Assembly (NCBI GenBank): GCA_021786105.1
Contig: JAJYNW010000010.1
Coordinates: 26,301 to 90,300 of the forward strand
Direction: 5' to 3'
DNA: 64,000 nt
DNA from: a bacterium
Lineage (GTDB): Bacteria; Patescibacteriota; Microgenomatia; Daviesbacterales; UBA10151
Of this stretch, positions 12,551 through 40,696 are shown piece after piece. Positions within the stretch are counted from its first letter, which is position 1. Every line of letters begins with the position of its first letter. A program made the position numbers and the translations under genes. The notes beneath the pieces are model-generated. The model made no database searches, was not told the origin of the DNA, and saw only the letters and a program-made list of their open reading frames with translations.

Positions 12551-12559
12551 GAGGCTGAA

Positions 12560-13620
12560 TTTGTTAAAAACACAGACTCTTTATTCTTATATAAATATAA
12601 GATGATGCAAACTAAGCAACTTTGACTTGAGAGATAACTTTTATATTAGCTATTTCACTTAGTAACTTTTCAAACATTTTATCCTGATATTTTCTGTTAT
12701 TGTATCTCCAACTATATTCATCAATATATGCCTGTAAGTATTTTTTAGATACAACTCTGTACACTCCATAAATACCTCGTTTTAGAATTGACCAAAGATT
12801 TTCAACATTCTGGGTATAAATATCACCAACTACATAAGTTTCTTTATGTTTTACAAAATCATGTTTATAACAGTGATATTTTAATTGGGTATATCCATAA
12901 TATTCATCAGTTATAACTCGGGCTTTTGCATCGACATGATTTTTAATCTGCTCAAGCAGTGTCCATTTGCCAGTATTGGGGATATGTTTTAAATATACTT
13001 TGTTGCCTCCTGTATCTGTCCCGTTTTTGTCTTGTTCATTTCTTTGCACCATTCCCATAACGACCTCTTTTGGTATTTCATTAAAGTTTGGTTTAAAAGC
13101 TCTATTTTTTCCTTTTCCTCCAATAAAAGTTTCATCTATTTCAACTGTGCCATCAAGTAGCTCACCATTACCACCTGAGCTTTCTGTACCAATCGTATTT
13201 ACCATAAGCATTCTTATTTGCTTAAACATTCTCCAGGCAGTTTTGTAGGTTACACCAAGCATCCGTTCTAATTGTTTTGCAGAAGTACCACTCCTGGTTT
13301 GGGTCATCAGATACATGGCAAAAAACCAAAGATCAAGTGGGGTTGTAGTTTTTTCAAAAATAGTTCCAGCAAGTGGATAAATGTGATGACCGCAATTATT
13401 GCAAGCGTAAGCAGTTCTTCCTTTAACAGTATAAAACTTTTCTTTTCCTTTGCATTTGGGACATTCCATTAAGTCGGAGAAACGAAGTCTTTTAATTACC
13501 TCAAGACACTGCTCATGAGTACCATATTCTTGTCTAAATTCTTTGAGGCTAAATTTCATAGGATAAACTTATCTTAGCATGAATCTTCCTTGTCGTCAAG
13601 GGATAAATGCCTAAATCTCC
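12560..13620 (-). mobile_element. IS1595-family insertion sequence (ISXO2-like); exact ends not resolved
   Basis: Single transposase ORF. A possible imperfect terminal repeat AGATAACTTTTAT (12632) versus AGATAAGTTTAT (rc of 13561-13572) is visible. The element sits immediately upstream of glyA. Confidence 0.5.
12612..13559 (-). CDS. IS1595 family transposase (ISXO2-like DDE)
   Basis: N-terminal zinc ribbon (CPKC...CNNCGHH) and a DDE transposase-like core, 315 aa. Confidence 0.85.
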   Translation of the reverse strand: MKFSLKEFRQEYGTHEQCLEVIKRLRFSDLMECPKCKGKEKFYTVKGRTAYACNNCGHHIYPLAGTIFEKTTTPLDLWFFAMYLMTQTRSGTSAKQLERMLGVTYKTAWRMFKQIRMLMVNTIGTESSGGNGELLDGTVEIDETFIGGKGKNRAFKPNFNEIPKEVVMGMVQRNEQDKNGTDTGGNKVYLKHIPNTGKWTLLEQIKNHVDAKARVITDEYYGYTQLKYHCYKHDFVKHKETYVVGDIYTQNVENLWSILKRGIYGVYRVVSKKYLQAYIDEYSWRYNNRKYQDKMFEKLLSEIANIKVISQVKVA

Positions 13621-13649
13621 CCTTGACAACCGGCTTCTTGTGGTTAACA

Positions 13650-14957
13650 ATGGTTTCTTCCATGTCATCAAAGGTTTTTAAATTAATTGCAGAAGAAGCC
13701 CACCGTCAAAAGTATGGTTTGGAAATGATCCCTTCAGAAAATTATGTTTCCAAAGATGTTTTAAGAGCTTTGGGGTCTATCCTGACTAATAAATATTCAG
13801 AAGGTTTTCCCGGCAGACGTTATTATGGCGGCAATGAAGTGATTGATAAAATTGAAAATTATGCTGTGGATTTGGCAAAGGAATTGTTCGGTGTGCCGGC
13901 CGCGTTTGTCCAATCTTATTCCGGTTCCCCGGCCAATCAGGCTATCACGATGGCAGTTTGTGAGCCGGGTGAGATAGTGATGGGGTTGGCTTTGTCTTCC
14001 GGCGGACATTTAACCCACGGTGCTAAATTAAATTTTTCCAGTATTTTCTTTAAAGCAGTTAATTATACTGTCGGTGAAGACTGGAAAATAAATTTTGGAG
14101 AACTGGAAGCTTTGGCCAAAAAACATAAACCAAAAATGATTTGGGTGGGAACGACTGCATATCCTTTTAAGCTGGATTATAAGAAATTCAGAAAAATTGC
14201 CGATGAAGTAAATGCCACACTGGTTGCAGATATTTCCCACATTACCGGGTTAATTATCGGCGGTGTTCACGAGTCACCAGTACCTTACGTTGACATCATT
14301 ATGACAACTACCCATAAAACTTTGCGGGGTCCGAGGGGAGCCATGATTTTGGTAACTGACCGGGGATTAAAAAGGGATCCGGAAATCAAAGGAAAAATTG
14401 AAAGAGCGATAATTCCCGGGATCCAGGGCGGGCCGCATAATCATCAAACAGCCGCTATTGCAGTAAGTTTAGAAGAAGCTTTAAAACCTTCGTTTAAAAA
14501 ATATGCTGCCCAAGTTGCTAAAAATGCGGCAGTGCTGGCCAGAGAATTGGGAACAGTTTCAGAAACTCATTTGATACTTTTGACTTTAACTGAATATGGT
14601 TATGGTATGGGTTATCAGGCCCAATATGCATTGGAGGAAGCGGGGATTACAGTTAATAAAAATACGATCCCCGGAGAACCAGCTTCTCCTTTTTATCCTT
14701 CAGGTATCCGCTTGGGAACGCCGGCTTTAACAACCAGAGGGATGAAGGAAAAAGATATGGTTAAGGTGGCCAGTTGGATTAAGATGGTTTTGGAAGAAAT
14801 TAGGAGTTTGGATTTGCCGGAAGAACAGGAAAAAAGAAAAGATTTCTTAAAAGAAGTTAGAGTTAAATTGCACCAAAATAAAAATTTGAAAAAAATCAGA
14901 AAAGAAGTGGAGAAATTTGCTGGAAAATTTCCTATGCCAGGTGTAGATGATATTTAG
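13650..14957 (+). CDS. glyA: serine hydroxymethyltransferase
   Basis: SHMT motifs (IPSENYVS, LTNKYSEGFPGRRYYGG, TTTHKTLRGPRG). The track ORF start at 13590 is a spurious extension into the IS flank. Confidence 0.9.
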   Translation: MVSSMSSKVFKLIAEEAHRQKYGLEMIPSENYVSKDVLRALGSILTNKYSEGFPGRRYYGGNEVIDKIENYAVDLAKELFGVPAAFVQSYSGSPANQAITMAVCEPGEIVMGLALSSGGHLTHGAKLNFSSIFFKAVNYTVGEDWKINFGELEALAKKHKPKMIWVGTTAYPFKLDYKKFRKIADEVNATLVADISHITGLIIGGVHESPVPYVDIIMTTTHKTLRGPRGAMILVTDRGLKRDPEIKGKIERAIIPGIQGGPHNHQTAAIAVSLEEALKPSFKKYAAQVAKNAAVLARELGTVSETHLILLTLTEYGYGMGYQAQYALEEAGITVNKNTIPGEPASPFYPSGIRLGTPALTTRGMKEKDMVKVASWIKMVLEEIRSLDLPEEQEKRKDFLKEVRVKLHQNKNLKKIRKEVEKFAGKFPMPGVDDI

Positions 14958-15011: not shown

Positions 15012-15857
15012 ATGAAAGTATCTGGTAAAGCAGTTGCAGCAGCCATCTCCAAAAAGCTCCAAAAAAAAATTGAAAAATTAACAGTAAAACCAACCCTCGC
15101 CATTATTTTGGTCGGAGAAGATCCTTCCTCCCGGATGTATGTTGATTTTAAAATTAAGGCGGCCAAACGAATTGGGGTGGGGATAAAATTTTATGAATTT
15201 TCCGAAGATCAATACAGAGAAACTTTAAAAACCATCCAAAAGTTAAATGCCGATAAACAAGTTCACGGGATAATAATTCAATACCCAATTTATAAAAGTT
15301 GGGACTTTGATGAGCTGTTTTCAGCAGTTGATCCAGAAAAAGATGTAGATGGCTTTCATGAAAACTCTCCTTTTGGCGGGGCTACCGCCATTGGAGTTTG
15401 GGAAATGCTGACTGCTTTTGCGCTGATTGAGGGATTTAAAAAAACAGAGGAATTTTTGAAAGATAAAAAGATTGTGGTTTTAGGTAGAGGCAAAACAGCC
15501 GGCGGCCCGATTATAAAACTTTTGGGAAGTCATGGTTTGCAGGTAACGGTGGTAGCTCACGATACTGAAAATCCGCAAAGCGTAATCAAAAGCGGAGATG
15601 TGATAATCTCGGCAACCGGGGTGAAAAATATTGTTAATAAAACTAATCTTAAAAACGGCAGCTTTGTGATTGGAGTTGGGGTGGGTAAAGAAATAGTGGA
15701 CGGGCAGTCCAAAGTTTATGGAGATATTAATGAAGAAGATGTAGAAAAAATTGCCAAATTATATTGCCCGACCATTGGTGGGATTGGGCCTTTGACAATT
15801 GTGAGTTTGCTCGAGAATACGATAGAGGCAAGTATCAGACAACAAAAAAAAGATTAA
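15012..15857 (+). CDS. folD: bifunctional methylene-THF dehydrogenase/cyclohydrolase
   Basis: 281 aa with FolD-like N-terminal catalytic and C-terminal NAD(P)-binding domains. Confidence 0.9.
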   Translation: MKVSGKAVAAAISKKLQKKIEKLTVKPTLAIILVGEDPSSRMYVDFKIKAAKRIGVGIKFYEFSEDQYRETLKTIQKLNADKQVHGIIIQYPIYKSWDFDELFSAVDPEKDVDGFHENSPFGGATAIGVWEMLTAFALIEGFKKTEEFLKDKKIVVLGRGKTAGGPIIKLLGSHGLQVTVVAHDTENPQSVIKSGDVIISATGVKNIVNKTNLKNGSFVIGVGVGKEIVDGQSKVYGDINEEDVEKIAKLYCPTIGGIGPLTIVSLLENTIEASIRQQKKD

Positions 15858-23626: not shown

Positions 23627-25045
23627 ATGGGAAAGAGATTGAAAGAGAAATGTGGAATATTTGGAGTTTATGGAACGGGATTTGAGGCAGCCCGATTAGT
23701 TCACCCCGGGCTTTGGGCCTTGCAACATCGAGGCCAAGAATCTTCCGGAATTGCATCTTCTGACGGTAAAAAGATCTATCTTCATAAAGGCATGGGCTTA
23801 GTTTCTCACGTTTTCGGAGAAGAAGACTTAAAAAAATTAAAAGGATATTTAGCAATTGGTCATAATCGTTATTCCACCTCAGGCGATTCAATTGACTCCC
23901 ACGCCCAACCAATTTTAGAAAAAATTAATGCTAATAAATTCATTGCCTTAGTCCATAACGGCAACCTTCCCTCCACTCAAAAGTTAGCAGAATTCCTAAA
24001 GGATAAAAAGGTTAGTGCATCCGGTCTTAATGATTCGGAAATGATTACTAAGGCAATTGCAGTTTTAGTCAAAGAAGGTTTAAGTTTGGAAGCGGCTATT
24101 AAAAAAGCATACCCTTTATTTACCGGTGTATTTTGTTTGTTGATTATGAATGAGGAAAAAATAATTGCGGTCAGGGATGGTTTCGGAATCAGGCCGCTTT
24201 GTTTGGGGAAATTAAACGGAGGGTTTATTGTAGCATCTGAAACCTGTGCCTTAGACATTATCGGAGCCAAATTTTTGCGGGAGGTGAAACCTGGTGAGAT
24301 GGTTATACTTGATGATAAAGGTTTACAAGGTGTCCAGATTGAAAAAGGTCAACAAAAGCTGGATGTTTTTGAATATGTCTATTTTGCCAGACCCGACAGT
24401 ATAATTTTGGGAAAAAGCGTTGATGAAGTCAGACAGAATTTAGGCAAAGAATTGGCTCGGGAAAATCAGATCAAAGCTGATATGGTCATCCCGGTTCCCG
24501 ATTCTGCAATACCGGCAGCCATAGGTTTTTCTAAAGAGTCAAAAATCCCTTTTGAAATGGGCCTTATTAAAAACCGCTATATTCACCGAACTTTTATTTC
24601 TCCGGAAGTACATGCCCGTCATAAAATGGTCCAATTAAAGCTTAACCCGATGCCGCATGTCCTCAAAGGGAAAAAGGTGATTATTATTGATGATTCAATA
24701 GTTAGAGGAACAACTTCAAAACAAATTATTAAAATGATTAAAGATGCCGGGGCTAAAGAAGTTCATTTATTGGTTTCCTCGCCTCCGGTGAAATTCCCGG
24801 ATTTTTATGGTATCGATACTCCTAAACAAAAGGATTTGATCGCGGCAGAAAAAAATATCAAGCAGATTGCCCAGGAGTTAGGGGTAGATTCCTTGCATTA
24901 TTTATCTTATCAAGGTTTGATAAAAGCCATTGGTTTGCCTGAAAATCTACTCTGCACCGCCCTTTTTAATGGCAATTATCCTGTGGATATCGGGGAAAGA
25001 AGGAAAGAGATAGTTTATGAAAAAAATAGCAGTTTTAATATCTAA
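23627..25045 (+). CDS. purF: amidophosphoribosyltransferase
   Basis: N-terminal CGIFGV glutamine amidotransferase nucleophile and a PRTase domain (VIIIDDSIVRGTT). Confidence 0.9.
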   Translation: MGKRLKEKCGIFGVYGTGFEAARLVHPGLWALQHRGQESSGIASSDGKKIYLHKGMGLVSHVFGEEDLKKLKGYLAIGHNRYSTSGDSIDSHAQPILEKINANKFIALVHNGNLPSTQKLAEFLKDKKVSASGLNDSEMITKAIAVLVKEGLSLEAAIKKAYPLFTGVFCLLIMNEEKIIAVRDGFGIRPLCLGKLNGGFIVASETCALDIIGAKFLREVKPGEMVILDDKGLQGVQIEKGQQKLDVFEYVYFARPDSIILGKSVDEVRQNLGKELARENQIKADMVIPVPDSAIPAAIGFSKESKIPFEMGLIKNRYIHRTFISPEVHARHKMVQLKLNPMPHVLKGKKVIIIDDSIVRGTTSKQIIKMIKDAGAKEVHLLVSSPPVKFPDFYGIDTPKQKDLIAAEKNIKQIAQELGVDSLHYLSYQGLIKAIGLPENLLCTALFNGNYPVDIGERRKEIVYEKNSSFNI

Positions 25046-26966
25046 CAAAGGTACAGGTACTAATCTACAAGCAATCATTAACGGGGTAGAAAGCGGAAAA
25101 ATTCCGGCTAAAATTGCAGCGGTAATTTCTGATACACCTGAAGCGCAAGGTTTAACAAGAGCCAAAAAACACAGACTTCCAATTAAAATAGTTCCGAAAA
25201 AAGAAGGACTGTCAGCAGTATTAAAAAAGCTGAACCCTGATTATATTTGTTTGGCTGGATGGAAACAGATTATTTTGGATGAGGTGATTGAGGCATTTCC
25301 TAATCGAATTTTAAATGTTCACCCCGGGCTTATACCGGATACAATGGACGGAGTTGTTAAAAATCCGGACGGAACCAACGGTCTATGGAATAAAGGGAAA
25401 ATGACCGATAAGGCCATGCAGAACTTTTTTGATAATAAGGCAACATATGCCGGTTCAAGCATTCATTTCTTAACTTTGGAATTTGATTTCGGACCGGTAT
25501 TGGGTAGAGGTTTTGAAGAGATAAGACGCGGGGATACCGTTGAATCTTTATATTCTAGATTAAAAATCAAAGAGAATAAATTGTATGCAGAGGTTTTGGC
25601 AAAACTTTGTTCTTCCCAAACCGTCTTAATTATTGATGGAGGCGGAAGAGGGTCAGTGCTGGTTGATAAATACGGGCAAAGCGAACAAATAGGGAAAATT
25701 TTAGTTATTCCCGGTAACGATCTGATGCAAATCAATACCAAAAAGCCGGTGATGACTTACCAACATTTGAAAACTACATCAGTTGACGAAATTTTAGAAA
25801 TTTGCCAAAAAGAAAAAGTGGATTTAGTGGATGTAGCTCAGGATAATGCAGTGGAAGTTGGGTTAGTAGATAAGCTGCAAAAAAATAAAATACCGGTAGT
25901 TGGTCCAACCAGGTTAGCCGGACAAATCGAATGGGATAAAGGATGGTCAAGGGATTTTATGAGAAAATATCAAATTGCGCACCCTAAGTATTATGTTTTC
26001 TCAACGGAAAAGGATGGAATAAAATTTGCAGAAGAATCAGAAAACCCTAAATGGTTTGTGAAAGCGGCTGGTTTGGCAGAGGGTAAAGGGGTGATACCGG
26101 CAGAGAATAAAAAAGATGTAATTAACGCTATCAAGCAAATGAGTAAATTTGGCAGCTCCGGCAAAACTTACTTATTGGAGGAATGGCTAACAGGTGAAGA
26201 ATTCTCGGCTTTTGCAATTTGCGATGGGAAAACTTTTAAATTGGTAGGTTTTGCTCAAGACCATAAAAGGGTAGATGATGGCGATCAAGGTCCTAATACC
26301 GGAGGGATGGGTTGTGTGTCCAGTCCTTTAATAGTTGATAAAAATATTAAAAGCCAGATAGAGGAAATCTTTAAAAAAGCTATGGCAGGTTTAAAAAAAG
26401 AAAAAAGGCCATACCAAGGAGTTTTGTATTTGGGTGGGATAGTAGTTGGAGGAAAAACTTATGTAATTGAATTTAATGCCAGGTGGGGAGATCCGGAGGC
26501 AGAAGTAATTGTGCCGTCTATCAAAAATGATTTGTTTGATTTATCAAAGGTTATAATTTCGGGAAGGATTAAAGACTTTGATGTCAGAACAGATAACAAA
26601 GTTAGAGTGGCAGTAGCGGGTGCAGCAAAAGGTTATCCGGTTGATTATTCTAAAGTTAAAGGTAAAAAAGTGTTGGGAATTGATAAAGCTATGCAAACAG
26701 GAGTTAAAATTTATGGCGCGGGTATTAAAAAAATTGACGGAGATTTTGTAGTTAATGGTGGCAGGGTTTTATATATGGTGGCGGAAGGAAAGAATATTAT
26801 GGACGCAAGAGAAAAAGCTTATAAAGCTATGAAATTGATAAAAATTGAGGGAGATAACTTGCATTACAGAAAAGATATTGGTTGGAGGGATGTTGAGCGA
26901 ATGCGAAATCCTGAGCGAGCGAAGCGAGTCGAAGGAGAAAGGCTGAAAAATGATACAAAAAGTTAG
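25017..26966 (+). CDS. purN-purD: fused GAR transformylase (PurN, N-terminal) and GAR synthetase (PurD, C-terminal)
   Basis: N-terminal PurN motifs (NVHPGLIPD) followed by a PurD ATP-grasp, 649 aa in total. The 3' tail is encoded by a degenerate copy of the GAGCGAAGCGAG element. Confidence 0.85.
   Translation: MKKIAVLISNKGTGTNLQAIINGVESGKIPAKIAAVISDTPEAQGLTRAKKHRLPIKIVPKKEGLSAVLKKLNPDYICLAGWKQIILDEVIEAFPNRILNVHPGLIPDTMDGVVKNPDGTNGLWNKGKMTDKAMQNFFDNKATYAGSSIHFLTLEFDFGPVLGRGFEEIRRGDTVESLYSRLKIKENKLYAEVLAKLCSSQTVLIIDGGGRGSVLVDKYGQSEQIGKILVIPGNDLMQINTKKPVMTYQHLKTTSVDEILEICQKEKVDLVDVAQDNAVEVGLVDKLQKNKIPVVGPTRLAGQIEWDKGWSRDFMRKYQIAHPKYYVFSTEKDGIKFAEESENPKWFVKAAGLAEGKGVIPAENKKDVINAIKQMSKFGSSGKTYLLEEWLTGEEFSAFAICDGKTFKLVGFAQDHKRVDDGDQGPNTGGMGCVSSPLIVDKNIKSQIEEIFKKAMAGLKKEKRPYQGVLYLGGIVVGGKTYVIEFNARWGDPEAEVIVPSIKNDLFDLSKVIISGRIKDFDVRTDNKVRVAVAGAAKGYPVDYSKVKGKKVLGIDKAMQTGVKIYGAGIKKIDGDFVVNGGRVLYMVAEGKNIMDAREKAYKAMKLIKIEGDNLHYRKDIGWRDVERMRNPERAKRVEGERLKNDTKS
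26895..26940. repeat. degenerate GAGCGAAGCGAG-type element forming the C-terminal codons of purN-purD
   Basis: CCTGAGCGAGCGAAGCGAGTCGAAGG resembles the TGTCATTCTGAGC..GCGAAGAATC elements at 28590 and 36124. Confidence 0.35.
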
Positions 26967-29736
26967 AGTACAAACAATAGGGCAACAAAACATTAAAGTT
27001 TATCGACTAGAGGGAATATTAGAAAAAGACGCCAAAATTTTGGCTGAAAAATTACTATCGGAATCAATCAACCAAAGGTATGCAATTAACCGTCCAATCC
27101 ACCTCGAAGGAGTTAAAGCCCACCTTCGAGGTGTGGCTGTAATAGAAATTGCTTATAAACCAGGGGTCATGAACCCGGAAGTAACATCGATTATGAAAGC
27201 TGCTTCTGATTTGGGGATTAAACTAATTGCCTGCGATAGCTCCATGGAGTACCTTAATAAAAAGGTTTCCTTTAATCCTTTAATAGAACATATAGTGACA
27301 GAAGAACCGCAAACACTTTTAATCAAAGAAAAACAAAGTCAAACTCAAATAATCCCAATCAGAAATCTTAATGATAAAGAGCTTTTGGATTTATCCAAAG
27401 ATAAACTTTTCTTAAATTTGGAAGAAATGCAAACCATCCAAAAATATTTTCAAAAAATCAACAGAGATCCGACTGATTTAGAACTGGAAACTTTAGCTCA
27501 AACTTGGAGCGAGCACTCCGGTCATAAAACTTTTAAAGCGAAATTAATTGTCGACGGCAAAGAAAAAGAACCGCTAATCCAAAGGATCAAAAAAGAGGCT
27601 TTGAAACATAATAAAAATATTGTGTCAGCATTTGAGGATAATTCCGGGGTGATGGATTTTTATGATGGTTTCGGAATTTGCGGCAAAGTGGAAACCCACA
27701 ATGCTCCGTCAGCTATTGAACCATATGGCGGGGCAATGACCGGTTCGGGTGGGGTGTTTCGCGATATCGCGGCAACCGGAAAAGGCGCAAAAAATATAGC
27801 CTCAACCGATATCTTTTGTTTTGCGCCGGTTGATTTACCTATTGAGAAATTACCTCAAGGTTGTTTGCCGCCGGAATATTTATTAAAAAGGGTGGTAGCC
27901 GGAGTGAGGGATTACGGGAATAGAATGGGAATTTCGACTAATAACGGATCAGTGCATTTCCAGGAAGATTTTCGGGCCAGACCAACAGTGATTGTGGGGG
28001 CATACGGCATAGTGCCGAAAAAATATGCTTTAAAAGACAAGCCGAAAATTGGAGATTTGATAATTTGTGTGGGCGGGCGGACAGGCAGGGATGGAATTCA
28101 CGGAGCCACTTTTTCTTCCGGTGAAATGACTGAACGGACAATTGAAGTGCATTCTTCAGCGGTGCAAATTGGCAATGCCATTGAGGAAAAAAGAATGTTT
28201 GATGCGCTCTTGGAAGCTAGAGACAGAGATTTAATCAGGTTGATACAGGATGTCGGTGGTGGAGGATTCTCGTCAGCTGTCGGTGAAATTGGAGAAAGTT
28301 TAGGGGTATCAGTTGATATTAAAAATGCGCCGTTAAAATACCAGGGTTTAGCACCTTGGGAAATTTGGGTGTCAGAGTCCCAGGAAAGAATGGTGGTGGT
28401 TTTAGAGGAAAAGAATCTGGAAGGATTTAAAGACCTTTGCAAAAAACATAACGTGGAGATGGCAGTTTTAGGAAAGTTTGATGGCAGTAAAAAATTAAAC
28501 GTGACTTTTGGAGAGGAAGTTGTCGGCGATTTAGATATGCATTTTTTGCATAAAGGGTTACCGAAAAGAATTCTTAAAGCCACCTCTCCTGTCATTCTGA
28601 GCACAGCGAAGAATCTCGAGATTAATGAATTTAGAGATCCTTCACTAATCGTTCAGGATGACAAAATTGAAGAGCCAAAAACAGAAAAAGAATGGATTGA
28701 AGTTTTGAAAAAGGTTTTGGGTCACGGTAATGTTTGTTCAAAAGAGCCAATTGTCCGGATGTATGACCATTCGGTCCAGGGGACTAATGATTTGCAGCCC
28801 TTTTCCGGTGTAACTTTAGACGGGCCAAATGATTCTCCGGTTTTGCGGCCATTCTTGGATAAAAAATATGGCATGGTAATTTCTCATGGATTAAATCCGA
28901 TACTAAATAATATTGATCCATATTGGGGGAGTATTTGGGCAGCAACAGAAAGCTTATCAAATTTTGTGGCAGTGGGAGGAGACTATAAAGAAGCTTGTCT
29001 GATAAATAATTATATTTGGCCGTTTCCGGATGAGGAATCACTTTGGTCATTGGATAGATCTGTTGATGCAGTAGTAGATTTTATGAAAGTTTTCCAAATC
29101 CCGGTAATTTCAGGCAAGGATAGTTTGTCCTCAACTTACCGGGCAGCAAACGGCACGATTATTAAAATTCCCCCAACACTTTGTATGTCAGTTTTTGGCA
29201 GAATTCTTGATGTCGATAAAACTGTCACTGCTGATTTTAAGAAAGTTGGTTCAACAATTTTGTTGGTAGGAAAAACGGATAAAAGTTTAGGCGGATCCAT
29301 ATATTATCAAGTAAATAATTTAGAAGGAAATTCTTTGCCGAAAGTAGATTTGAAATTATTGTCAGAAGTTTTTACAGCAGTTAATAACGCAATAACAAAT
29401 GGAAAAGCATTAGCAGTTCACGATGTATCAGAAGGGGGAATAATTTCTACAATCTTTGAAATGTGTGTGGGCGGAGGGATGGGGGCAGATATCCACCTCG
29501 AAGGAGTCAAAGCCCACCTTCGAGGTGATCAGATTTTGTTTAACGAAACTGCAGGGTGTTTTATTGTTGAGGTGGAAAACAAAAAAGTCGCTGAGCGACT
29601 TTTTAAAAATATTCCTTATCACATCTTAGGAGAAACAAAAGTAGATCAAAAAATAGAAGTAAAAAATCTGTTTAAAGCCGACGTTAATGATTTGAAAAAA
29701 GCTTGGCAGGAACCAATGAGGAGGTGCTTCAAATGA
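26950..29736 (+). CDS. purL: FGAM synthase PurL with an N-terminal PurS-like extension; carries three in-frame repeat insertions
   Basis: 928 aa with PurL AIRS-domain motifs (VETHNAPSAIEPYGGA, GDYKEACLINNYIWPF). purQ follows. Confidence 0.85.
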   Translation: MIQKVRVQTIGQQNIKVYRLEGILEKDAKILAEKLLSESINQRYAINRPIHLEGVKAHLRGVAVIEIAYKPGVMNPEVTSIMKAASDLGIKLIACDSSMEYLNKKVSFNPLIEHIVTEEPQTLLIKEKQSQTQIIPIRNLNDKELLDLSKDKLFLNLEEMQTIQKYFQKINRDPTDLELETLAQTWSEHSGHKTFKAKLIVDGKEKEPLIQRIKKEALKHNKNIVSAFEDNSGVMDFYDGFGICGKVETHNAPSAIEPYGGAMTGSGGVFRDIAATGKGAKNIASTDIFCFAPVDLPIEKLPQGCLPPEYLLKRVVAGVRDYGNRMGISTNNGSVHFQEDFRARPTVIVGAYGIVPKKYALKDKPKIGDLIICVGGRTGRDGIHGATFSSGEMTERTIEVHSSAVQIGNAIEEKRMFDALLEARDRDLIRLIQDVGGGGFSSAVGEIGESLGVSVDIKNAPLKYQGLAPWEIWVSESQERMVVVLEEKNLEGFKDLCKKHNVEMAVLGKFDGSKKLNVTFGEEVVGDLDMHFLHKGLPKRILKATSPVILSTAKNLEINEFRDPSLIVQDDKIEEPKTEKEWIEVLKKVLGHGNVCSKEPIVRMYDHSVQGTNDLQPFSGVTLDGPNDSPVLRPFLDKKYGMVISHGLNPILNNIDPYWGSIWAATESLSNFVAVGGDYKEACLINNYIWPFPDEESLWSLDRSVDAVVDFMKVFQIPVISGKDSLSSTYRAANGTIIKIPPTLCMSVFGRILDVDKTVTADFKKVGSTILLVGKTDKSLGGSIYYQVNNLEGNSLPKVDLKLLSEVFTAVNNAITNGKALAVHDVSEGGIISTIFEMCVGGGMGADIHLEGVKAHLRGDQILFNETAGCFIVEVENKKVAERLFKNIPYHILGETKVDQKIEVKNLFKADVNDLKKAWQEPMRRCFK
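27097..27133. repeat. 37 nt palindromic element (CACCTCGAAGG-loop-CCTTCGAGGTG) in-frame inside purL, encoding IHLEGVKAHLRG
   Basis: It matches 29491-29527 at 36 of 37 nt inside the same gene, while the flanking protein sequences are unrelated. Confidence 0.6.
28590..28663. repeat. 74 nt MITE-like element in-frame inside purL (TGTCATTCTGAGCACAGCGAAGAATCTCGAG...TCGTTCAGGATGACA), encoding VILSTAKNLEINEFRDPSLIVQDD
   Basis: Almost identical to the intergenic copy at 36124-36196, with the same termini and internal AGAGATCCTTCACTAATCGTTCAGGATGACA. Confidence 0.6.
29491..29527. repeat. second copy of the 37 nt CACCTCGAAGG/CCTTCGAGGTG palindrome in-frame in purL
   Basis: See 27097-27133. Confidence 0.6.
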
Positions 29737-32074: not shown

Positions 32075-34014
<1,940 letters not shown>

Positions 34015-34016: not shown

Positions 34017-35033
34017 ATGGGAATTAAAAATTACACAATTGTAACTTTAGGTTCTCACTCCGCCCTGCAAATTTTAAAAGGGGCAAAAGACGAAGGGTTC
34101 AAAACTGCGGTCGTAGCAACTCCCAACAGAATTCCCCTTTATAAATCTTACCCAAACTTTATTGACGAAATTTTAGAGGTAAAATCCTGGAATGAGTTTC
34201 CAAAACTTGAAAGTGAGTTAGTCAAAAGAAATTGTATTGTTATTCCTCATGGATCCTTTGTGGCATATTTGGGAATGGATGAAAATAAAGAAATGAAAGT
34301 GCCTTATTTCGGAAACAAGGCAGTTTTAGATTGGGAGGAAAACCGGAAAATGCAAAGGACTTGGATGGAAGAGTCGGGGGTAAAAGTGCCGCATAGATTC
34401 AAAAGAGGAGATAAGATAGACCGGCCGGTGATTGTAAAATCCCATGGGGCCTCTGGTGGAAAAGGCTATTTTACAGCCAGAAACCAAAAAGAATTTGATG
34501 AAAAATTAAAGAAATATAATGAGGAAAAATTTATGGTTCAAGAATATGTGATCGGAGTACCGCTTTATTTTTCATTTTTCTATTCACCCTTAACAAAAAA
34601 AGTAGAAATAATGAGTATTGATAAACGGTATGAAACGAACGTTGATTCCTTAGGTAGGATTCCGGCGAAAAACCAGAGAGGGTTAAATATTGAGCCATCC
34701 TTTGAGGTGGTGGCAAATATTCCATTGGCTGTTAGGGAATCAATGTTGGCGGAGGCAGTTTCAATGGCGGAAAGGGTGGTTGAAACTTCCCGGAAACTCA
34801 TACCGGAGAAAGGCCTTTTTGGACCATTTTGTCTGGAAACAATTATTACATCAAGTGAGGAAATTTATGTAATTGAAATATCAGCTAGGATTGTTGCCGG
34901 AACTAATTTTTTCATAAATGGTTCGCCTTATACATATCTTTTGTATGATGAACCGATGTCAACAGGTAGACGGATTGCCAGAGAGATTAAAAATGCAATA
35001 AACTTAAATAAATTGAAAGAGGTGTTAGATTGA
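34017..35033 (+). CDS. purP: archaeal-type formate-dependent FAICAR synthetase (PurP family, ATP-grasp)
   Basis: N-terminal TLGSHSALQILKGAKDEGF signature typical of PurP (DUF1246/DUF1297), 338 aa. Confidence 0.7.
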   Translation: MGIKNYTIVTLGSHSALQILKGAKDEGFKTAVVATPNRIPLYKSYPNFIDEILEVKSWNEFPKLESELVKRNCIVIPHGSFVAYLGMDENKEMKVPYFGNKAVLDWEENRKMQRTWMEESGVKVPHRFKRGDKIDRPVIVKSHGASGGKGYFTARNQKEFDEKLKKYNEEKFMVQEYVIGVPLYFSFFYSPLTKKVEIMSIDKRYETNVDSLGRIPAKNQRGLNIEPSFEVVANIPLAVRESMLAEAVSMAERVVETSRKLIPEKGLFGPFCLETIITSSEEIYVIEISARIVAGTNFFINGSPYTYLLYDEPMSTGRRIAREIKNAINLNKLKEVLD

Positions 35034-36118
35034 TGAATAATTACACAATTGCTGTTTTAGGTTCTCACTCTGCTTTAGACGTTTGCCGGGGTGCAAAAGA
35101 TTTAGGATTTAGGACTTTAGTGATTTGCAAAAAGGGAAGAGAAAAAACTTACAAAGATTATTATGCTTCTAATGGCAAATTAGGTTGTGTTGATGAAGTG
35201 ATTGTGCTGGATGAATTTAAAGATATTTTAAATAAAGAGATCCAAGAAGAACTCCTTAAAAAAAATTGTATTTTTGTTCCCCACCGGTCTTTTGAAGTTT
35301 ACATCAATGATTACAATGCGATTGAGAAAAAATTTAAAGTGCCGATGTTTGGGAACAGGTTCTTATTAAAAGCGGAAGAACGGGGAGTCAAACCAAACCA
35401 ATATGATTTATTGGATGCGGCCAAAATCCGCTACCCCAAACAATTTAAAAATCCGGAAAGTATTGACCGGCTTTGTATTGTTAAAGTTTTGGAAAAAGAA
35501 CGGGGATTTGAAAGGGCATTTTTCTTTGCCGAATCTTTTGAAGAGTATAAAGTGGGAGTAGCTCATGGATTGGGTCTAGGCAAGTTTACTGAGGAGCAGA
35601 TAAAAGCAGCAGTGATTGAGGAATTTATTGTGGGGGTGCAAGTAAATTTTAATTTCTTTTATTCACCAGTAAACAAACGGCTCGAACTAATTGGGACTGA
35701 TACCAGAAGGCAAACTAATATTGAGGGTTTAACTAAATTACCATCTATTTACGAAGAAGAGTTAATTAAAAAGATTGGAGTCAAATATGAAGAAGCCGGA
35801 CATATTGCGGTGACGGTTTTAGAATCACTTTTGGAAGATGCATTCGCAATGGGGGAAAGATTTGTAGAGGCTACTCAAAAAATGGTTAAGACCGGTGTGA
35901 TTGGTCCATTTGGTTTGCAAACTATGATTACGGCTGGTCCGCCTAAAAAAGAAATAATTGTTTTTGATGTTTCACCCAGAATGCCGGGGAGCCCGGGAAT
36001 TTTTGCAACTCCGTACGGTAATTATTTATATGGTGAGCATTTATCGATGGGTAAAAGAGTCGCCATGGAAATAAAGGAAGCTTTAGAGAAAGGAGAGTTA
36101 GACAAAGTTTTAACTTAA
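35030..36118 (+). CDS. second PurP-family paralog (ATP-grasp)
   Basis: VLGSHSALDVCRGAKDLGF. It is a paralog of the upstream gene and overlaps its stop by 4 nt. Confidence 0.7.
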   Translation: MMNNYTIAVLGSHSALDVCRGAKDLGFRTLVICKKGREKTYKDYYASNGKLGCVDEVIVLDEFKDILNKEIQEELLKKNCIFVPHRSFEVYINDYNAIEKKFKVPMFGNRFLLKAEERGVKPNQYDLLDAAKIRYPKQFKNPESIDRLCIVKVLEKERGFERAFFFAESFEEYKVGVAHGLGLGKFTEEQIKAAVIEEFIVGVQVNFNFFYSPVNKRLELIGTDTRRQTNIEGLTKLPSIYEEELIKKIGVKYEEAGHIAVTVLESLLEDAFAMGERFVEATQKMVKTGVIGPFGLQTMITAGPPKKEIIVFDVSPRMPGSPGIFATPYGNYLYGEHLSMGKRVAMEIKEALEKGELDKVLT

Positions 36119-36123
36119 CATAT

Positions 36124-36196
36124 TGTCATTCTGAGGCGTAGCCGAAGAATCTCAAGATTTAGTCCAGAGATCCTTCACTAATCGTTCAGGATGACA
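36124..36196. repeat. 73 nt MITE-like element (TGTCATTCTGAGG...TTCAGGATGACA) between purP2 and purH
   Basis: Near-identical to the in-frame copy at 28590-28663. Its 3' end (AGGATGACAG) lies 7 nt from the purH ATG. Confidence 0.6.
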
Positions 36197-36203
36197 GAAA
36201 CAT

Positions 36204-37742
36204 ATGAAAACTGATAAACGATTCGCCTTGCTGAGTGTTTATGATAAAACCGGAATTGCTGATTTTGCTAAAGTGCTCCAAAAGTTAGAATATACCATCA
36301 TTTCCACAGGCGGCACACTAAATGTTCTAGAAGAAAACGGCGTTAAGGTAATACCGATTGATGAAATTACCGGTAACCCTAGGGATTCGTTTGACGGCCG
36401 GATGAAAACCATTAGTTTCCAAATTGAGTCAGGTATTTTATTTGATAGAAAAAATTTCAAGCATGTGACAGAAGCTAATAAACTGAATGTGCCGCAAATC
36501 GATATGGTGGTTTGTAATCTTTACCCGTTTGAAGAAAAACCCGGTATTGAAACAATTGATGTGGGTGGTCCAACTATGATCAGGGCAGCTGCCAAAAATC
36601 ATAGCAATGTTTTAGTTGTAGTTAGCCCGGATGATTATGGATTAGTAGCTGATGCTTTGGAGAAAGGAAAGGTAACTGATAAATTAAGAAAGGAATTAGC
36701 ATCAAGAGCCTTTTACCATTTATCGTTTTATGATTCCCAAATTGGCAACTTTTTCTCTGATAAAAAATTTCCTAAGGAATTAACAGTACCACTTAGAAGA
36801 TTAAGCGTTTTGCGGTATGGGGAAAACCCGCACCAGGCCGGTGCTTTATATTTAATGCCAAAGGCTAATTCTCCTTTAGGTAAATTGAAACATCTTTGGG
36901 GTAGGGAATTATCCGGTACAAATATCGGAGATATCTATACCGGCTTGGAAACTGTTAGGCAATTTAGCGAACCGGCGGCAGCAGTGATGAAACATTTGAG
37001 TCCTTGCGGGATAGCTACCGGTAAGACGGCCGAAGAAGCATTAGACAGAGCAGTAAAAGCAGATCCGGTTTCCGCCTTTGGCGGGGTAGTTGTTTTGAAT
37101 AAACCAATGGACTTGAAGGCGGCCAAAATTATTGCCACTTTTAAAAACGAAAAAGAAGGTAATACGGATATCGTGGCAGTGCCGGAAATTTCTGCAGATG
37201 CTTTGGAGCTTTTGAAAAAAGTTAGAAAAACTATGGGAGTTTATACCTTTGGTAAGATTCCTGCAAACAGGACTGAAAATTGGGATTTGAAATATTTTGC
37301 CGGGGCAGTACTGTTGCAGGATTATGATGATAATGTAGAAAAAAGTTTTGCTAGTTGGAAAGTCGTGACTAAGAAAAAGCCAACTCAAAAACAGCTGGAG
37401 CTAATGCATTTTGGTTTTAAGGCAGTAAAGGCGGTTAAATCAAATTCTGTTTTGGTGGTGGATAAAAATATCCCAATGACGCGAGGAATTGGTTCCGGAC
37501 AAACTTCCCGGATTGGAGCTACTAAAATTGCTTTGGAACAAGCCGGGGATTTGGCCAAAAGTGGTATTCTAATAAGTGACAGCTTTTTTCCGTTTGATGA
37601 TAGCGTTAAGATGGCGGTGAAATTTGGCATTGGGGTAATCGCGGAACAGGGCGGATCGATAAATGACCAGATGTCCGTGATAGCTGCTGATGAGGCTGGT
37701 ATTGCAATGGTGTTTACCGGAAGGAGGGCATTCAGACACTAA
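36204..37742 (+). CDS. purH: bifunctional AICAR transformylase/IMP cyclohydrolase
   Basis: MGS-like IMPCH N-terminal domain (LSVYDKTG, ISTGGT) and an AICARFT C-terminal domain, 512 aa. Its stop overlaps the purB ATG (TAATG). Confidence 0.9.
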   Translation: MKTDKRFALLSVYDKTGIADFAKVLQKLEYTIISTGGTLNVLEENGVKVIPIDEITGNPRDSFDGRMKTISFQIESGILFDRKNFKHVTEANKLNVPQIDMVVCNLYPFEEKPGIETIDVGGPTMIRAAAKNHSNVLVVVSPDDYGLVADALEKGKVTDKLRKELASRAFYHLSFYDSQIGNFFSDKKFPKELTVPLRRLSVLRYGENPHQAGALYLMPKANSPLGKLKHLWGRELSGTNIGDIYTGLETVRQFSEPAAAVMKHLSPCGIATGKTAEEALDRAVKADPVSAFGGVVVLNKPMDLKAAKIIATFKNEKEGNTDIVAVPEISADALELLKKVRKTMGVYTFGKIPANRTENWDLKYFAGAVLLQDYDDNVEKSFASWKVVTKKKPTQKQLELMHFGFKAVKAVKSNSVLVVDKNIPMTRGIGSGQTSRIGATKIALEQAGDLAKSGILISDSFFPFDDSVKMAVKFGIGVIAEQGGSINDQMSVIAADEAGIAMVFTGRRAFRH

Positions 37743-39151
37743 TGGAAAATCAAAAATCAAAAATCAAAAATCAAAAATATGATAGTTATCAAAGCCCATT
37801 TTCCTGGAGATATGGCTCAGAAGAAATGAGAGGAATATTCTCTGAGGAAAATAAATACAAACTTTGGAGAAAAGTTTGGGTAGCATTGGCTCGGGCAGAA
37901 CATAGGGAAGGTTTGGTATCAAAGGAAGAACTGGAAGATTTAGAAAAAAATCAAGATAACATCGATATAGCAAGAATTTGGGAAATTGAAAAAGATACCC
38001 GGCATGACGTGGTGGCGGCCATCAGGGAGTTTTCCGAAAAAGCCAAAATCGGCGGGGGAAAAATCCACCTTGGCGCCACATCAATGGATATTTCTGATAA
38101 TGCAGAAACGATCAGAATCTTAGAAGCATTAGGATTGGTGGAAGATGGGTTAAAAAGACTGCTTAAAACTTTTAGTGCAAAAATAGAGAAATATGCTGAT
38201 TTTTCTTGTATGGGTTATACGCATTTGCAGCCGGCAGAACCAACTACTTTGGGTTACCGGTTTGCTTTTTATGCTCAAGATCTTTTGATGGATTTAGAGC
38301 TTTTGCAATTTGTTAAAGAGAGCTTAAAAAGCAAGGGGGTTAAAGGTGCAGTGGGAACTTCAGCCAGTTATGTAAAATTGCTGGATGAGACAAAAGCCAA
38401 AGAAATGGAAAATGGAATAATGGAGGAATTAGGGGTGGAGGCATTTGAAATTACTAATCAGACAGCTCCCCGAAAGATTGAATTTTGGTTGGGAAGTTTA
38501 CTTTCCTCAATTGCAGAGAGTCTTAATAAATTTGCTTTTGATTTAAGGATTATGCAGTCGCCGGGATTCGGAGAATGGCAGGAATCATTTGGCAGTTCAC
38601 AGATTGGTTCGTCCGCTATGCCTTTTAAGAAGAATCCCATTAAGGCTGAACAAATTTGTTCATTGGCGAGGCTGGTGGTTAACCTGTCAAAAACTGCCTG
38701 GGATAATGCCGCATATATGCTTTTGGAAAGGACACTGGATGATTCAGCTAATAGAAGAGTGGTGACTCCGGAAATGTTTTTGGCAGTGGACGAGATGCTA
38801 AATTCTTCTATAAAAATTGTTGATGGATTAATTATTAATGAAAGCAGGATACATAAAAATCTGGAAACCTATTGGCCTTTTTCTGCAACTGAGGGAATTA
38901 TCCTGGAATCAGTGAAAAAGGGGGCAGACCGGCAACAGATGCATGAGATACTCCGGGAGATTTCCATGAAAGCTTGGGAAACTATTTCCGGAGGTAATCC
39001 TAATCCAATGGAGAATTTATTAGAAGAGAACCCTATTATCAGGCTCTACTTAAAACCAATTGAAGTTGAAGAAATTTTAGATGCCAAAAATCATATTGGA
39101 AATGCCAAAGAAAAAGCTTTGAAGATTGCTGATATAATTAAAAAATTATGA
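37742..39151 (+). CDS. purB: adenylosuccinate lyase
   Basis: Fumarate lyase signature GSSAMPFKKNP and an N-terminus aligning to PurB (RYG...MRGIFSE). Confidence 0.9.
   Translation: MENQKSKIKNQKYDSYQSPFSWRYGSEEMRGIFSEENKYKLWRKVWVALARAEHREGLVSKEELEDLEKNQDNIDIARIWEIEKDTRHDVVAAIREFSEKAKIGGGKIHLGATSMDISDNAETIRILEALGLVEDGLKRLLKTFSAKIEKYADFSCMGYTHLQPAEPTTLGYRFAFYAQDLLMDLELLQFVKESLKSKGVKGAVGTSASYVKLLDETKAKEMENGIMEELGVEAFEITNQTAPRKIEFWLGSLLSSIAESLNKFAFDLRIMQSPGFGEWQESFGSSQIGSSAMPFKKNPIKAEQICSLARLVVNLSKTAWDNAAYMLLERTLDDSANRRVVTPEMFLAVDEMLNSSIKIVDGLIINESRIHKNLETYWPFSATEGIILESVKKGADRQQMHEILREISMKAWETISGGNPNPMENLLEENPIIRLYLKPIEVEEILDAKNHIGNAKEKALKIADIIKKL
37746..37778 (+). repeat. 7 nt tandem repeat (AAAAATC) x ~4.7 in codons 2-12 of purB
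   Basis: Read directly. The unit length is not a multiple of 3. Confidence 0.6.
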
Positions 39152-39642
39152 CAAAAGTAATGATCATAACTGGTTCTGATTCTGATTTGCCGGTGATGAA
39201 GGAGGTGGCAAAAGTTATGGAGGAATTTGGGGTAAGTTTCGAAATGACAATTTCTTCAGCGCACCGATCACCGGAAAGAACCAAGGAGCTAGTGGAAAAT
39301 GCCAAAAGCAGCGGAATAAAAGTAATTATTGCCGGGGCGGGAATGGCAGCACATCTTGCCGGCGTATTGGCGGCAGAATTTCCTTTGCCGGTGATTGGAG
39401 TACCTCTCCAAAGCGGAGTTTTGCATGGGATAGATGCTTTACTTTCGACAATGCAAATGCCCTCGGGGATTCCGGTAGCAACTGTAGCGATAAACGGAAC
39501 AAAAAATGCCGGGATTTTGGCAGTGCAAATTTTAGCAACTTCGGATAAAAGTTTGGAAGAAAAGCTGGTGGAATACAAAAAGAAATTAGCTGAAGGTGTT
39601 TTAGAAAAGGCAAAAAAATTGGCACAAGAAATGTCGTCCTGA
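39148..39642 (+). CDS. purE: AIR carboxylase / N5-CAIR mutase PurE
   Basis: 164 aa with SAHR and GAGMAAHLAGV motifs. No purK is present in the window. Confidence 0.9.
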   Translation: MTKVMIITGSDSDLPVMKEVAKVMEEFGVSFEMTISSAHRSPERTKELVENAKSSGIKVIIAGAGMAAHLAGVLAAEFPLPVIGVPLQSGVLHGIDALLSTMQMPSGIPVATVAINGTKNAGILAVQILATSDKSLEEKLVEYKKKLAEGVLEKAKKLAQEMSS

Positions 39643-39711
39643 GTGATTAGCCGAAAGATTTCCCACGGACTGGGAAGATTGCCACGTCGCTACGCTCCTC
39701 GCAATGACAAG
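39632..39711. repeat. ~80 nt palindromic element (TGTCGTCCTGAGTG...GGAAGATTGCCACGTCGC...CCTCGCAATGACA), paralog of 9296-9372, overlapping the purE stop and the purC start
   Basis: Direct comparison with 9296-9372. It supplies the ATG that gives the track ORF its spurious MTRY extension. Confidence 0.55.
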
Positions 39712-39715
39712 GTAT

Positions 39716-40696
39716 ATGGTTGATGAAAAAACTGTTATCGCAAATATTCATAATGTTTTAAAAACTGTAAATCTGTCTGGTTTTGGTAAAAAGCATTCCG
39801 GTAAAGTCCGCGATAGCTATGAATTGGACGGTAAGCGGATTATCATTACCACTGATCGCCAATCCGCTTTTGATAAAATTCTCGGTTTCATTCCTTTTAA
39901 AGGACAAGTGTTAACAAAACTTTCAGAATTTTGGTTTAAAAAAACAGCAGATATTATCCAAAATCATTTAATTTCCGTCCCTGATCCCAATGTTATGGTA
40001 GTAAAAAATTGCCAGGTAATCCCAATTGAAATGGTGGTTCGCGGTTACATTACCGGCGTGACCGATACTTCGATTTGGGGATCATATGAAAAAAGGGAAA
40101 GGGTAATTTACGGCATTAAATTTCCGGAGGGTTTGCGAAAAAATCAAAAATTAGCAAGCCCGGTAATCACCCCAACCACCAAAGCGGAAAAAGGACATGA
40201 TGAAAGGTTAACTGAAAAAGAAATTATCCAAAGAAAAATTGTGACTCCGGCAATTTGGAAACAAATGAAGAAGGTAGCTTTAGAACTTTTTGAAAAGGGA
40301 CAAAAAGTTTGTGAAAAGGCGGGAATAATTTTGGTGGATACAAAGTATGAGTTTGGCTTGGATGAAAAGGGGAAACTAATTTTAGTTGATGAAATACATA
40401 CTCCTGATTCTTCCAGGTACTGGGTTAAAAAAACTTATCAGGCAAGATTTAAAAAAGGGTTAGAGCCGGAAAGTTATGACAAAGAACCGTTAAGGATTTG
40501 GTTTAAAACTCATGGTTACACCGGCAAAGGAAAAATTCCTCAAATGCCCCCGGAGTTTATTGCCAAAATGAGCAGGCTTTATATGGGAATTTATGAAAAA
40601 ATCACCGGCCAAAAGATTATCCCGGATACAACTAAAGACGCTGATAATAGAATCAAAAATAATCTGTTAAAATCTGAGTTTGCAAAAGATCGATAA
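39716..40696 (+). CDS. purC: SAICAR synthetase
   Basis: GKVRDSYE and DRQSAFD motifs. Start trimmed to the second ATG, after the repeat. Confidence 0.9.
   Translation: MVDEKTVIANIHNVLKTVNLSGFGKKHSGKVRDSYELDGKRIIITTDRQSAFDKILGFIPFKGQVLTKLSEFWFKKTADIIQNHLISVPDPNVMVVKNCQVIPIEMVVRGYITGVTDTSIWGSYEKRERVIYGIKFPEGLRKNQKLASPVITPTTKAEKGHDERLTEKEIIQRKIVTPAIWKQMKKVALELFEKGQKVCEKAGIILVDTKYEFGLDEKGKLILVDEIHTPDSSRYWVKKTYQARFKKGLEPESYDKEPLRIWFKTHGYTGKGKIPQMPPEFIAKMSRLYMGIYEKITGQKIIPDTTKDADNRIKNNLLKSEFAKDR

Follow-up and report, generated by a model that had tools for sequence, protein, structure and literature searches.

An archaeal-type PurP couple directly upstream of full-length purH in the Daviesbacteria purine operon

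Why would a bacterium that encodes a full-length, folate-dependent PurH carry, directly upstream of it, two genes of a protein family described as archaeal? The question is raised by a 64,000-nucleotide (nt) stretch of DNA, referred to here as the window, from a member of the Daviesbacterales (Patescibacteriota, Microgenomatia; assembly GCA_021786105.1, contig JAJYNW010000010.1, positions 26,301 to 90,300). On its plus strand lie two adjoining open reading frames (ORFs), PurP-A (34017..35033, ATG start, 338 residues) and PurP-B (35033..36118, 361 residues from its ATG; the mechanical ORF, 35030..36118, opens with a TTG and has 362 residues, and the database gene call starts one codon later, at ATG 35033). 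An initial annotation had taken both for tandem paralogs of the formate- and ATP-dependent enzyme that converts 5-aminoimidazole-4-carboxamide ribonucleotide (AICAR) to its formylated derivative FAICAR, the penultimate step on the way to inosine monophosphate (IMP). Judged from their sequences, the two are the PurP II and PurP III couple of archaea, also known as cluster Ib and cluster II, and it is as a couple that we discuss them. This is not a new kind of system, and GenBank already names the A-type automatically as PurP.

Membership of both ORFs in the PurP family, as first proposed, is supported by Pfam, NCBIfam and solved-structure matches. The Pfam domains DUF1246 and DUF1297 are matched over the full length of both (E = 1e-41 to 1e-67; 141 and 225 bits in PurP-A, 152 and 200 bits in PurP-B, against cutoffs of about 24-25), and the predicted N-terminal signature GSHSAL..GAKDxGF is present in each (LGSHSALQILKGAKDEGF and LGSHSALDVCRGAKDLGF). 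Three solved PurP-family structures are matched by both proteins (E = 3e-103 and 4e-67), with full-length alignments to 2R84 and 2R7K; the best solved relative of PurP-A is Pyrococcus furiosus PF1517 (E = 3e-103). Profile searches gave no reason for reassignment to another ATP-grasp family: PurK, PurT, PylC, RimK and carbamoyl-phosphate-synthetase-like families matched PurP-A marginally and PurP-B not at all. The NCBIfam equivalogs for formate--phosphoribosylaminoimidazolecarboxamide ligase (NF009778-NF009783; the family is also catalogued as PRK13278) match both proteins below their cutoffs, at best 393 against 580 bits for PurP-A and 293.5 against 556 for PurP-B. The two are family members, not close equivalents of the characterised enzyme, and these models do not license transfer of an exact function. 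At NCBI, PurP-A orthologues are called formate--phosphoribosylaminoimidazolecarboxamide ligase, PurP-B orthologues only 'DUF1297 domain-containing protein'.

To which subgroups do they belong? Brown et al. 2011 distinguished clusters Ia and Ib, with Asn258 and a (K/R)GG(K/R)G P-loop, from cluster II, with His258 and a loop two residues longer, and found cluster II one-to-one with cluster Ib in archaea (PMC3261824). Cruz et al. 2019 use the names PurP I, II and III and find that II and III share one set of 61 taxa (PMC6486802). We mapped the numbering of Methanocaldococcus jannaschii MJ0136 (cluster Ia, PDB 2R7K), the only biochemically characterised FAICAR synthetase, onto the window proteins, which share its fold and domain pair, with residue roles as relayed by Brown 2011 and Cruz 2019. 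The formyl-contacting His27 and Arg314 correspond to His14 and Arg291 in PurP-A and to His13 and Arg317 in PurP-B, and the AICAR phosphate contacts Ser94 and Ser266 to Ser80 and Ser242 and to Ser87 and Ser266, respectively. At two places the proteins part company: the carboxamide-contacting Asn258 is Asn234 in PurP-A and His258 in PurP-B, and the P-loop (161-165) reads SGGKG (146-150) in PurP-A and ERGFERA, two residues longer, in PurP-B, so that Asn258 and the GGKG loop have equivalents in PurP-A only. PurP-A further keeps Lys141, Glu287 and Ser289; PurP-B keeps Lys152, Asp313 and Ser315. The first P-loop position of PurP-A is Ser or Ala rather than the Lys/Arg of (K/R)GG(K/R)G, and the GGKG remainder is invariant. 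In PurP-B the glycine-rich loop is gone, the 'GGTN' segment reads 'GSPG', and the replacement loop LEKERGFERAFFF has 13 residues against 11, with Glu161-Arg162 invariant in 36 genomes and 'ERAFF' in most. Across these genomes every mapped contact or catalytic residue is invariant except Ser80 of PurP-A (one Thr) and its position 146 (Ser/Ala); checked paralog by paralog, the ATP-grasp catalytic and ligand-contacting residues are thus kept in both.

The same dichotomy runs through the whole family, which is small (612 representatives among 1.84 billion proteins). Across 68 full-length representatives the correlation between Asn and short loop on the one hand and His and long loop on the other is perfect; all 38 His-type representatives in the tree have long loops, nearly all with the Glu-Arg pair, within a conserved Glu-Arg-x-Phe-Phe motif. 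In neighbour-joining trees, the only kind built, clusters I and II split with 100/100 bootstrap support and PurP-A falls in the Asn258 clade. The bacterial PurP-A clade stands beside the PF1517 (Ib) or Thermococcales-type group (81/100), separate from MJ0136 and Methanocella (Ia; 95/100). In the trimmed alignment behind the tree, PurP-A and PF1517 share 52% identity, and PurP-B has the exact cluster II signature. A phylogeny with archaeal PurP therefore confirms the family relatives and at the same time places the two ORFs in separate ancient clades. They adjoin, as 'tandem paralogs' implies, but local duplication is not supported: at 35% identity and on opposite sides of a split with full support, a recent tandem duplication is ruled out. 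Because signature residues, loop lengths and tree placement agree, we identify the window pair as the ancient Ib/II couple. Its counterparts are PF1517 (PurP II) and PF0421 (PurP III) in Pyrococcus and the equivalent pairs of Crenarchaeota, Thaumarchaeota, Archaeoglobi and Korarchaeum: the same Asn258/GG-G-loop and His258/long-loop proteins, usually adjacent and linked to pur genes.

Is the couple a passing oddity of one genome? A single-protein scan of genome contigs returned 37 loci, all from close relatives, whose homologues are named Candidatus Daviesbacteria, Microgenomates or Patescibacteria. In about 33 of these 37 independently assembled Daviesbacteria/Microgenomates loci the order is purA (minus strand), PurP-A, PurP-B, purH, purB, purE, purC, and PurP-A and PurP-B are adjacent in every related locus that spans both genes. 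Mean pairwise identity over 34-36 genomes is 0.84 for PurP-A and 0.77 for both PurP-B and PurH, compared with 0.65-0.73 for purB, purA, purC, purE, guaA and purQ. The two PurPs are thus the most conserved proteins of the operon (PurP-B level with PurH), and on this comparative evidence the pair is fixed in the Daviesbacteria purine operon, under stronger constraint than most of its genes. Many of the related records (L002-L004, L006, L007 and others; CAZ*/CAY*, 'binchicken', SRP co-assemblies) are titled 'uncultured Gammaproteobacteria bacterium'. Their operon is of the Daviesbacteria type, with proteins 82-91% identical and a GC content of about 38-40%, and in these third-party annotation assemblies the label looks like a placeholder or a mistake.

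Other arrangements occur among the relatives. In Candidatus Shapirobacteria (L034:6710-8817, JAPLYY010000015.1) the pair, which matches its window counterparts at 76% and 69% identity, stands alone between ABC-transporter genes on a 10.8-kb contig with no other pur genes. In a Microgenomates-like metagenome-assembled genome (L033:9017-11431, CAZGFG010000006.1) PurP-B is fused in frame to PurB in a protein of 804 residues with the domains DUF1246, DUF1297 (ending at profile position 166 of 188), Lyase_1 and ADSL_C, in a pur cluster that has neither purH nor purA. Either the deletion of purH left a genuine Rosetta-stone fusion behind, or the assembly produced an artefact; if genuine, PurP-B would be tied to the AICAR-producing enzyme because of it.

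The expression signals are conserved together with the genes. A consensus sigma-70 promoter (33983..34011, plus strand; TTGACA, 17 nt, TATAAT, a 12/12 match) lies immediately upstream of PurP-A. Only 5 nt separate the end of its -10 box from the ATG, leaving no room for a Shine-Dalgarno sequence, which implies that the PurP-A transcript would be leaderless or near-leaderless. About 30 of 35 related loci have this promoter, again 5 nt from the start codon, with a conserved spacer core TTTGGTAGT; it could be a candidate operator for a purine regulator. The ATG of PurP-B overlaps the TGA of PurP-A (TGATG) and is preceded by a GAGG Shine-Dalgarno about 10 nt upstream, by its sequence a classic translational-coupling arrangement. 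Between PurP-B and purH lie 85 nt (36119..36203, plus strand) forming a long imperfect hairpin (-29.5 kcal/mol, z = -5.2) without a T-tract, whose 3' arm covers the purH ribosome-binding region. Since most related loci have only 2-10 nt at this place, the spacer is probably an inserted element; it is single-copy in the window, with one similar copy in a related locus (L030, minus strand, at about 15665), and it could be a small mobile or REP-like (repetitive extragenic palindromic) element or a translational control element. In three other Daviesbacteria (L007:10185-11008, L025:10084-10880, L036:10120-10869) the same interval holds a gene of about 255 codons whose product resembles, by eye, a haloacid-dehalogenase-type hydrolase (DxDGT motif, 'ALIIDCDGTLI').

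How far does the couple extend beyond these relatives? Here taxonomy is drawn from cluster names, most of them blank, and from contig contexts. Outside the candidate phyla radiation (CPR) clade, archaea account for most of the named relatives (Nitrosocosmicus, Nitrososphaerales, Methanocella, Diapherotrites, Heimdallarchaeota, Aenigmarchaeota), and one of the contigs (L042) is archaeal, with PolB and Pus10. The closest non-CPR relative of PurP-A, at 60% identity, lies on high-GC contigs (67-70% GC) of Candidatus Eremiobacterota, where homologues are named Vulcanimicrobiaceae, Baltobacteraceae (numerous in both families) and Velthaea and contigs reach 2.5 Mb. Two Eremiobacterota contigs (L039:1520-11143 and L040) carry the PurP Ib/II couple in a pur cluster of purB, purC, purL, purQ, a 154-residue ORF, PurP-I, an Ala-rich 383-residue ORF and PurP-II. 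Neither additional gene has a Pfam match or a window counterpart; the 154-residue ORF is PurS-like by eye only. No purH was found within 21 kb of the Eremiobacterota couple, nor within 17-21 kb in the pair-bearing pur clusters of L033, L038 and L039. On a contig of 45% GC (L041:3484-11254, Logan SRR22387755), a full-length purH is near PurP-I and PurP-II genes that are separated by two unannotated minus-strand genes, and to the CPR B clade its B-type protein stands closest, as sister. In L043, an archaeal-style cluster, purT occurs together with the pair. The two genes are likewise together in L038, L039, L041, L042 and L043 (with intervening genes in L039 and L041), so that cluster-I and cluster-II genes are adjacent or near-adjacent in all seven lineages examined: Daviesbacteria, Shapirobacteria, Eremiobacterota, an archaeon and three others.

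The A-type proteins of CPR, Eremiobacterota and L038 (62% GC) form one clade with 100% support; in the B-type tree the same lineages share a neighbourhood that is poorly resolved (about 40% support). This fits transfer of the couple from archaea to bacteria followed by spread among bacteria, with the direction and the number of events as neighbour-joining trees suggest them. The characterisation of PurP as archaeal, on which the initial annotation drew, no longer holds strictly. In 2019 a survey of 1,403 complete genomes confined PurPs to archaea (PMC6486802); that statement is out of date, as CPR Microgenomates and Eremiobacterota, two bacterial phyla at the least, have the couple as a fixed feature. 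Our literature searches for PurP in CPR or Eremiobacterota (one of them swamped by matches of the 'purpose' type) found no paper on bacterial PurP.

The claimed coexistence with an intact purH, folD and purN is confirmed. purH (36204..37742, plus strand; NF002049, 512.6 bits against a cutoff of 402; Pfam MGS and AICARFT_IMPCHas) can be aligned from end to end with solved PurH structures and contains the KH..PCG motif. Lys263/His264 of its AICAR transformylase (AICARFT) domain and Lys68, Tyr107, Asp119 and Lys131 of its IMP cyclohydrolase (IMPCH) domain, which we take to be the catalytic residues from those of ATIC (Lys-His, and Lys, Tyr, Asp and Lys), show no variation across 34 genomes, and conservation is 0.778 in AICARFT versus 0.742 in IMPCH. 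PurH thus appears to be an intact bifunctional enzyme, with both AICAR-to-FAICAR routes seemingly maintained and neither decaying; decay of the PurH transformylase as a reason for the coexistence is ruled out by the intact motif and its conservation. Folate one-carbon enzymes able to supply 10-formyltetrahydrofolate (10-formyl-THF) are encoded by glyA (13590..14957, plus strand; NF000586, 480.7 bits) and folD (15012..15857, plus strand; FolD models up to 186.6 bits, under equivalog cutoffs). purN forms the first part of a purN-purD fusion (25017..26966, plus strand; TIGR00639 PurN over residues 2-201, 113 bits against a cutoff of 150; TIGR00877 PurD). In alignments to solved PurN structures it keeps the Asn and His of the NVHPGLIP motif and the downstream Asp, with an insertion of about 27 residues after the motif. 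Because the fusion carries this folate-dependent glycinamide ribonucleotide (GAR) transformylase domain, step 3 would still depend on 10-formyl-THF, and the pair therefore cannot make purine synthesis folate-independent; a folate-sparing rationale for it is weakened for the same reason.

What, then, does the couple do? The initial annotation assigned FAICAR synthetase activity to both proteins, which goes too far. The family assignment stands; the activity itself has been demonstrated only for cluster Ia, in MJ0136, which makes FAICAR from AICAR, formate and ATP (PMC3261824; PMC6486802). P. furiosus PurP II binds ATP and AICAR in an active site resembling that of MJ0136 (PMC6486802), but neither PurP II (PF1517) nor PurP III (PF0421) was active alone (PMC3261824, PMC6486802), and extracts of Sulfolobus solfataricus, which has only Ib and II, incorporate labelled formate on conversion of ZMP (AICAR) to IMP (PMC3261824). 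We consider it somewhat better than an even bet (roughly 0.55) that PurP-A and PurP-B jointly constitute an ATP- and formate-dependent AICAR formyltransferase that feeds the IMPCH domain of PurH, parallel to the folate route of PurH, with substrate, reaction and A-B association all predicted. In such a scheme, a bacterial lineage would have acquired the couple from archaea, and it would now be fixed in the Daviesbacteria purine operon. One strong promoter would drive a leaderless purP-A followed by a translationally coupled purP-B. The products would be co-dependent partners, plausibly a hetero-oligomer such as an A3B3 arrangement of the kind speculated for archaea, where a PurP II/III heterohexamer has been suggested (Cruz 2019, PMC6486802). 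Together they would activate free formate with ATP and formylate AICAR to FAICAR, which the N-terminal IMPCH domain of the PurH encoded immediately downstream would close to IMP. The PurH transformylase domain would provide the parallel 10-formyl-THF route, both routes being kept.

Joint formylation by the two proteins is favoured by the formyl and phosphate contacts retained in both, by the high and similar constraint on both, by their strict co-occurrence as neighbours or near-neighbours, by the overlap of stop and start codons and the conserved promoter, by the PurP-B::PurB fusion of L033 and by the archaeal findings just cited. Several observations weigh against it. FAICAR synthetase activity has never been demonstrated for Ib or II, and both window proteins score far below the equivalog cutoffs. 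Strict coupling is not universal, one or two genes lying between the PurPs in L039 and L041. [quoted passage not shown] Finally, neither formate-producing genes (pfl, fdh, purU) nor purT were found in the annotated part of the window.

Comparison with known systems helps to place this proposal. Pyrococcus and Crenarchaeota lack PurH1, PurH2 and PurO, whereas the window pair lies directly upstream of a full-length folate-dependent purH, with purN, folD and glyA besides; the Pyrococcus couple serves a hyperthermophilic archaeon and the present one a mesophilic CPR bacterium, and the couple's function is a prediction in both. MJ0136, present in one copy in a methanogen without folate, forms a homohexamer and has PurO as its partner enzyme, in contrast to the Ib and cluster II proteins of the window. 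The same redundancy is known from Methanosarcinales, folate users with a complete bifunctional PurH and purN beside a PurP couple (PMC3261824). That case is archaeal; in the window the three genes purP-A, purP-B and purH are contiguous in one bacterial operon, and both routes appear to be under equal constraint. The AICAR transformylase domain of PurH (PurH1/PurV) performs the same net step from AICAR to FAICAR with an unrelated fold, using 10-formyl-THF and no ATP. PurT, a bacterial formate- and ATP-dependent GAR transformylase of step 3, follows the same logic as proposed for the couple: it has an ATP-grasp fold, draws on formate by way of formyl phosphate and bypasses a folate-dependent transformylase. 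It is, though, of a different ATP-grasp family and acts on a different substrate. In Escherichia coli, PurN and PurT coexist.

That the second protein may differ from the first in substrate or role, as was suggested at the outset, is a reasonable idea. One form of it is that the two are sequential enzymes: PurP-A alone would be the formate- and ATP-dependent FAICAR synthetase and PurP-B would use the same scaffold for another ATP-dependent step, most attractively closure of FAICAR to IMP. PurP-B keeps the formyl and phosphate contacts together with an invariant His for Asn258 and a Glu-Arg loop of its own, a pattern that points to changed chemistry more than to decay. Where purP is duplicated, purO/purH2 tend to be missing (Brown 2011, PMC3261824), and the three pair-bearing clusters without a nearby purH described above point the same way, although absence from the locus is not absence from the genome. 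On the other side, Daviesbacteria, L041, Methanosarcinales and Archaeoglobi keep an IMPCH domain beside the pair, its catalytic residues being invariant here (PMC3261824), and PF1517, the Ib protein, had no FAICAR synthetase activity on its own, contrary to what this reading predicts (PMC6486802). We regard a division into two successive steps as unlikely. Were it true, Crenarchaeota and Pyrococcus would have their 'missing' IMP cyclohydrolase in PurP-B, and the pair would amount to a complete folate-independent AICAR-to-IMP module duplicating PurH.

Equally unlikely, in our view, is that PurP-A is the sole catalyst and PurP-B a regulatory or scaffolding pseudoenzyme that stabilises or regulates it. 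Loss of the (K/R)GG(K/R)G loop and the change from 'GGTN' to 'GSPG' would suit such a role, as would the match of generic ATP-grasp Pfam models to PurP-A and not to PurP-B; as cited in PMC6486802, Zhang et al. considered PurP III possibly non-catalytic. Yet Lys152, Asp313-x-Ser-x-Arg317, His13, Ser87 and Ser266 of PurP-B are all invariant, the Glu161-Arg162 of its replacement loop is invariant here and conserved family-wide, and PurP-B (0.77) is more conserved than most operon enzymes, a pattern more like that of an active site than of a scaffold. A stricter version of the two-step idea turns these features into chemistry: the couple would be a self-sufficient folate-independent module in which PurP-A formylates with formate and ATP and PurP-B, through His258 and the Glu-Arg loop, acts as an ATP-dependent FAICAR cyclo-ligase. 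We hold this specific assignment to be rather improbable. If correct, it would make PurP-B the long-missing IMP cyclohydrolase of Crenarchaeota, Pyrococcus and purH-less bacteria (such as the lineages of L033, L038 and L039), and Daviesbacteria would cover the final two steps of purine synthesis twice over, by complete routes of unrelated mechanism.

More doubtful still is the view that PurH is the sole route to IMP and that the pair, though its substrate would be AICAR or another imidazole nucleotide akin to it, takes its formyl or one-carbon unit from a donor other than free formate, or serves in a non-purine branch. The intact PurH and folate enzymes and the Shapirobacteria pair away from any pur gene would agree with it, and, in the account given in PMC6486802, Zhang et al. 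speculated on an alternative formyl source and P. furiosus PurP II bound ATP and AICAR without formate-dependent activity. It has to contend with operon linkage to purH, purB, purE and purC in about 33 genomes and to pur genes in five other lineages, with the invariance of the formyl-contacting His and Arg, and with the entry of formate into IMP in extracts of an archaeon with only Ib and II (PMC3261824). That the genes are non-functional relics of horizontal transfer, or archaeal DNA introduced by assembly or binning, is highly improbable: for all the apparent redundancy with an intact PurH and the scores under equivalog cutoffs, the ORFs are unbroken in all of 36 genomes, which come from independent studies, the most conserved of their operon and near-invariant at key residues, promoter and gene overlap are conserved, the GC content of the pair equals that of its surroundings, bacterial genes flank it on both sides (rpsB, rseP, proS, tig, dnaX, cysS, cmk, ppsA and eno are in the window) and synteny extends over 37 loci, which rules out archaeal contamination or mis-binning, so that synteny and conservation effectively refute this explanation.

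With its remaining purine genes, the window holds a near-complete purine cluster. Upstream of the couple, purF starts at 23627, purL (26950-29736) has an N-terminal extension of about 155 residues without a Pfam match, purQ starts at 29703 and guaA at 30512. The minus-strand purA (32647..33960; NF002223, 562.8 bits) diverges from the PurP-A promoter region, a position kept in related loci. An ORF of 191 residues between guaA and purA (32075-32650) has no Pfam or NCBIfam match, and among the 37 loci its only counterpart is in L002 (54% identity). Downstream of purH follow purB, purE and purC (37742..40696, plus strand, starting at 37742, 39148 and 39704; TIGR00928, TIGR01162 and NF009251, all above cutoff), then prs from 40723 and, on the minus strand, purM (41730-42977), with an N-terminal extension of about 100 residues and a score under the equivalog cutoff. 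Neither Rfam at gathering thresholds nor a tRNA scan gave a match in the window, and no ZTP or purine riboswitch was detected. Just upstream of glyA and folD, an IS1595-family transposase gene (12612-13559, minus strand) falls within the stretch where the GC content of the window is lowest (10001-14000; 0.345 versus about 0.39).

Finally, we would like to consider what the couple means for its hosts and its family. CPR bacteria are often assumed to be unable to make nucleotides, and the finding affects how their metabolism is reconstructed. It also presents what appears to be the transfer of a two-gene unit from archaea to bacteria. Most important, for the family it bears on a question about 15 years old: what the functions of PurP II and PurP III are, and whether one needs the other. 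Orthologues from mesophilic bacteria, encoded beside a standard purH, would offer an easier experimental system for answering it than the proteins of hyperthermophiles.

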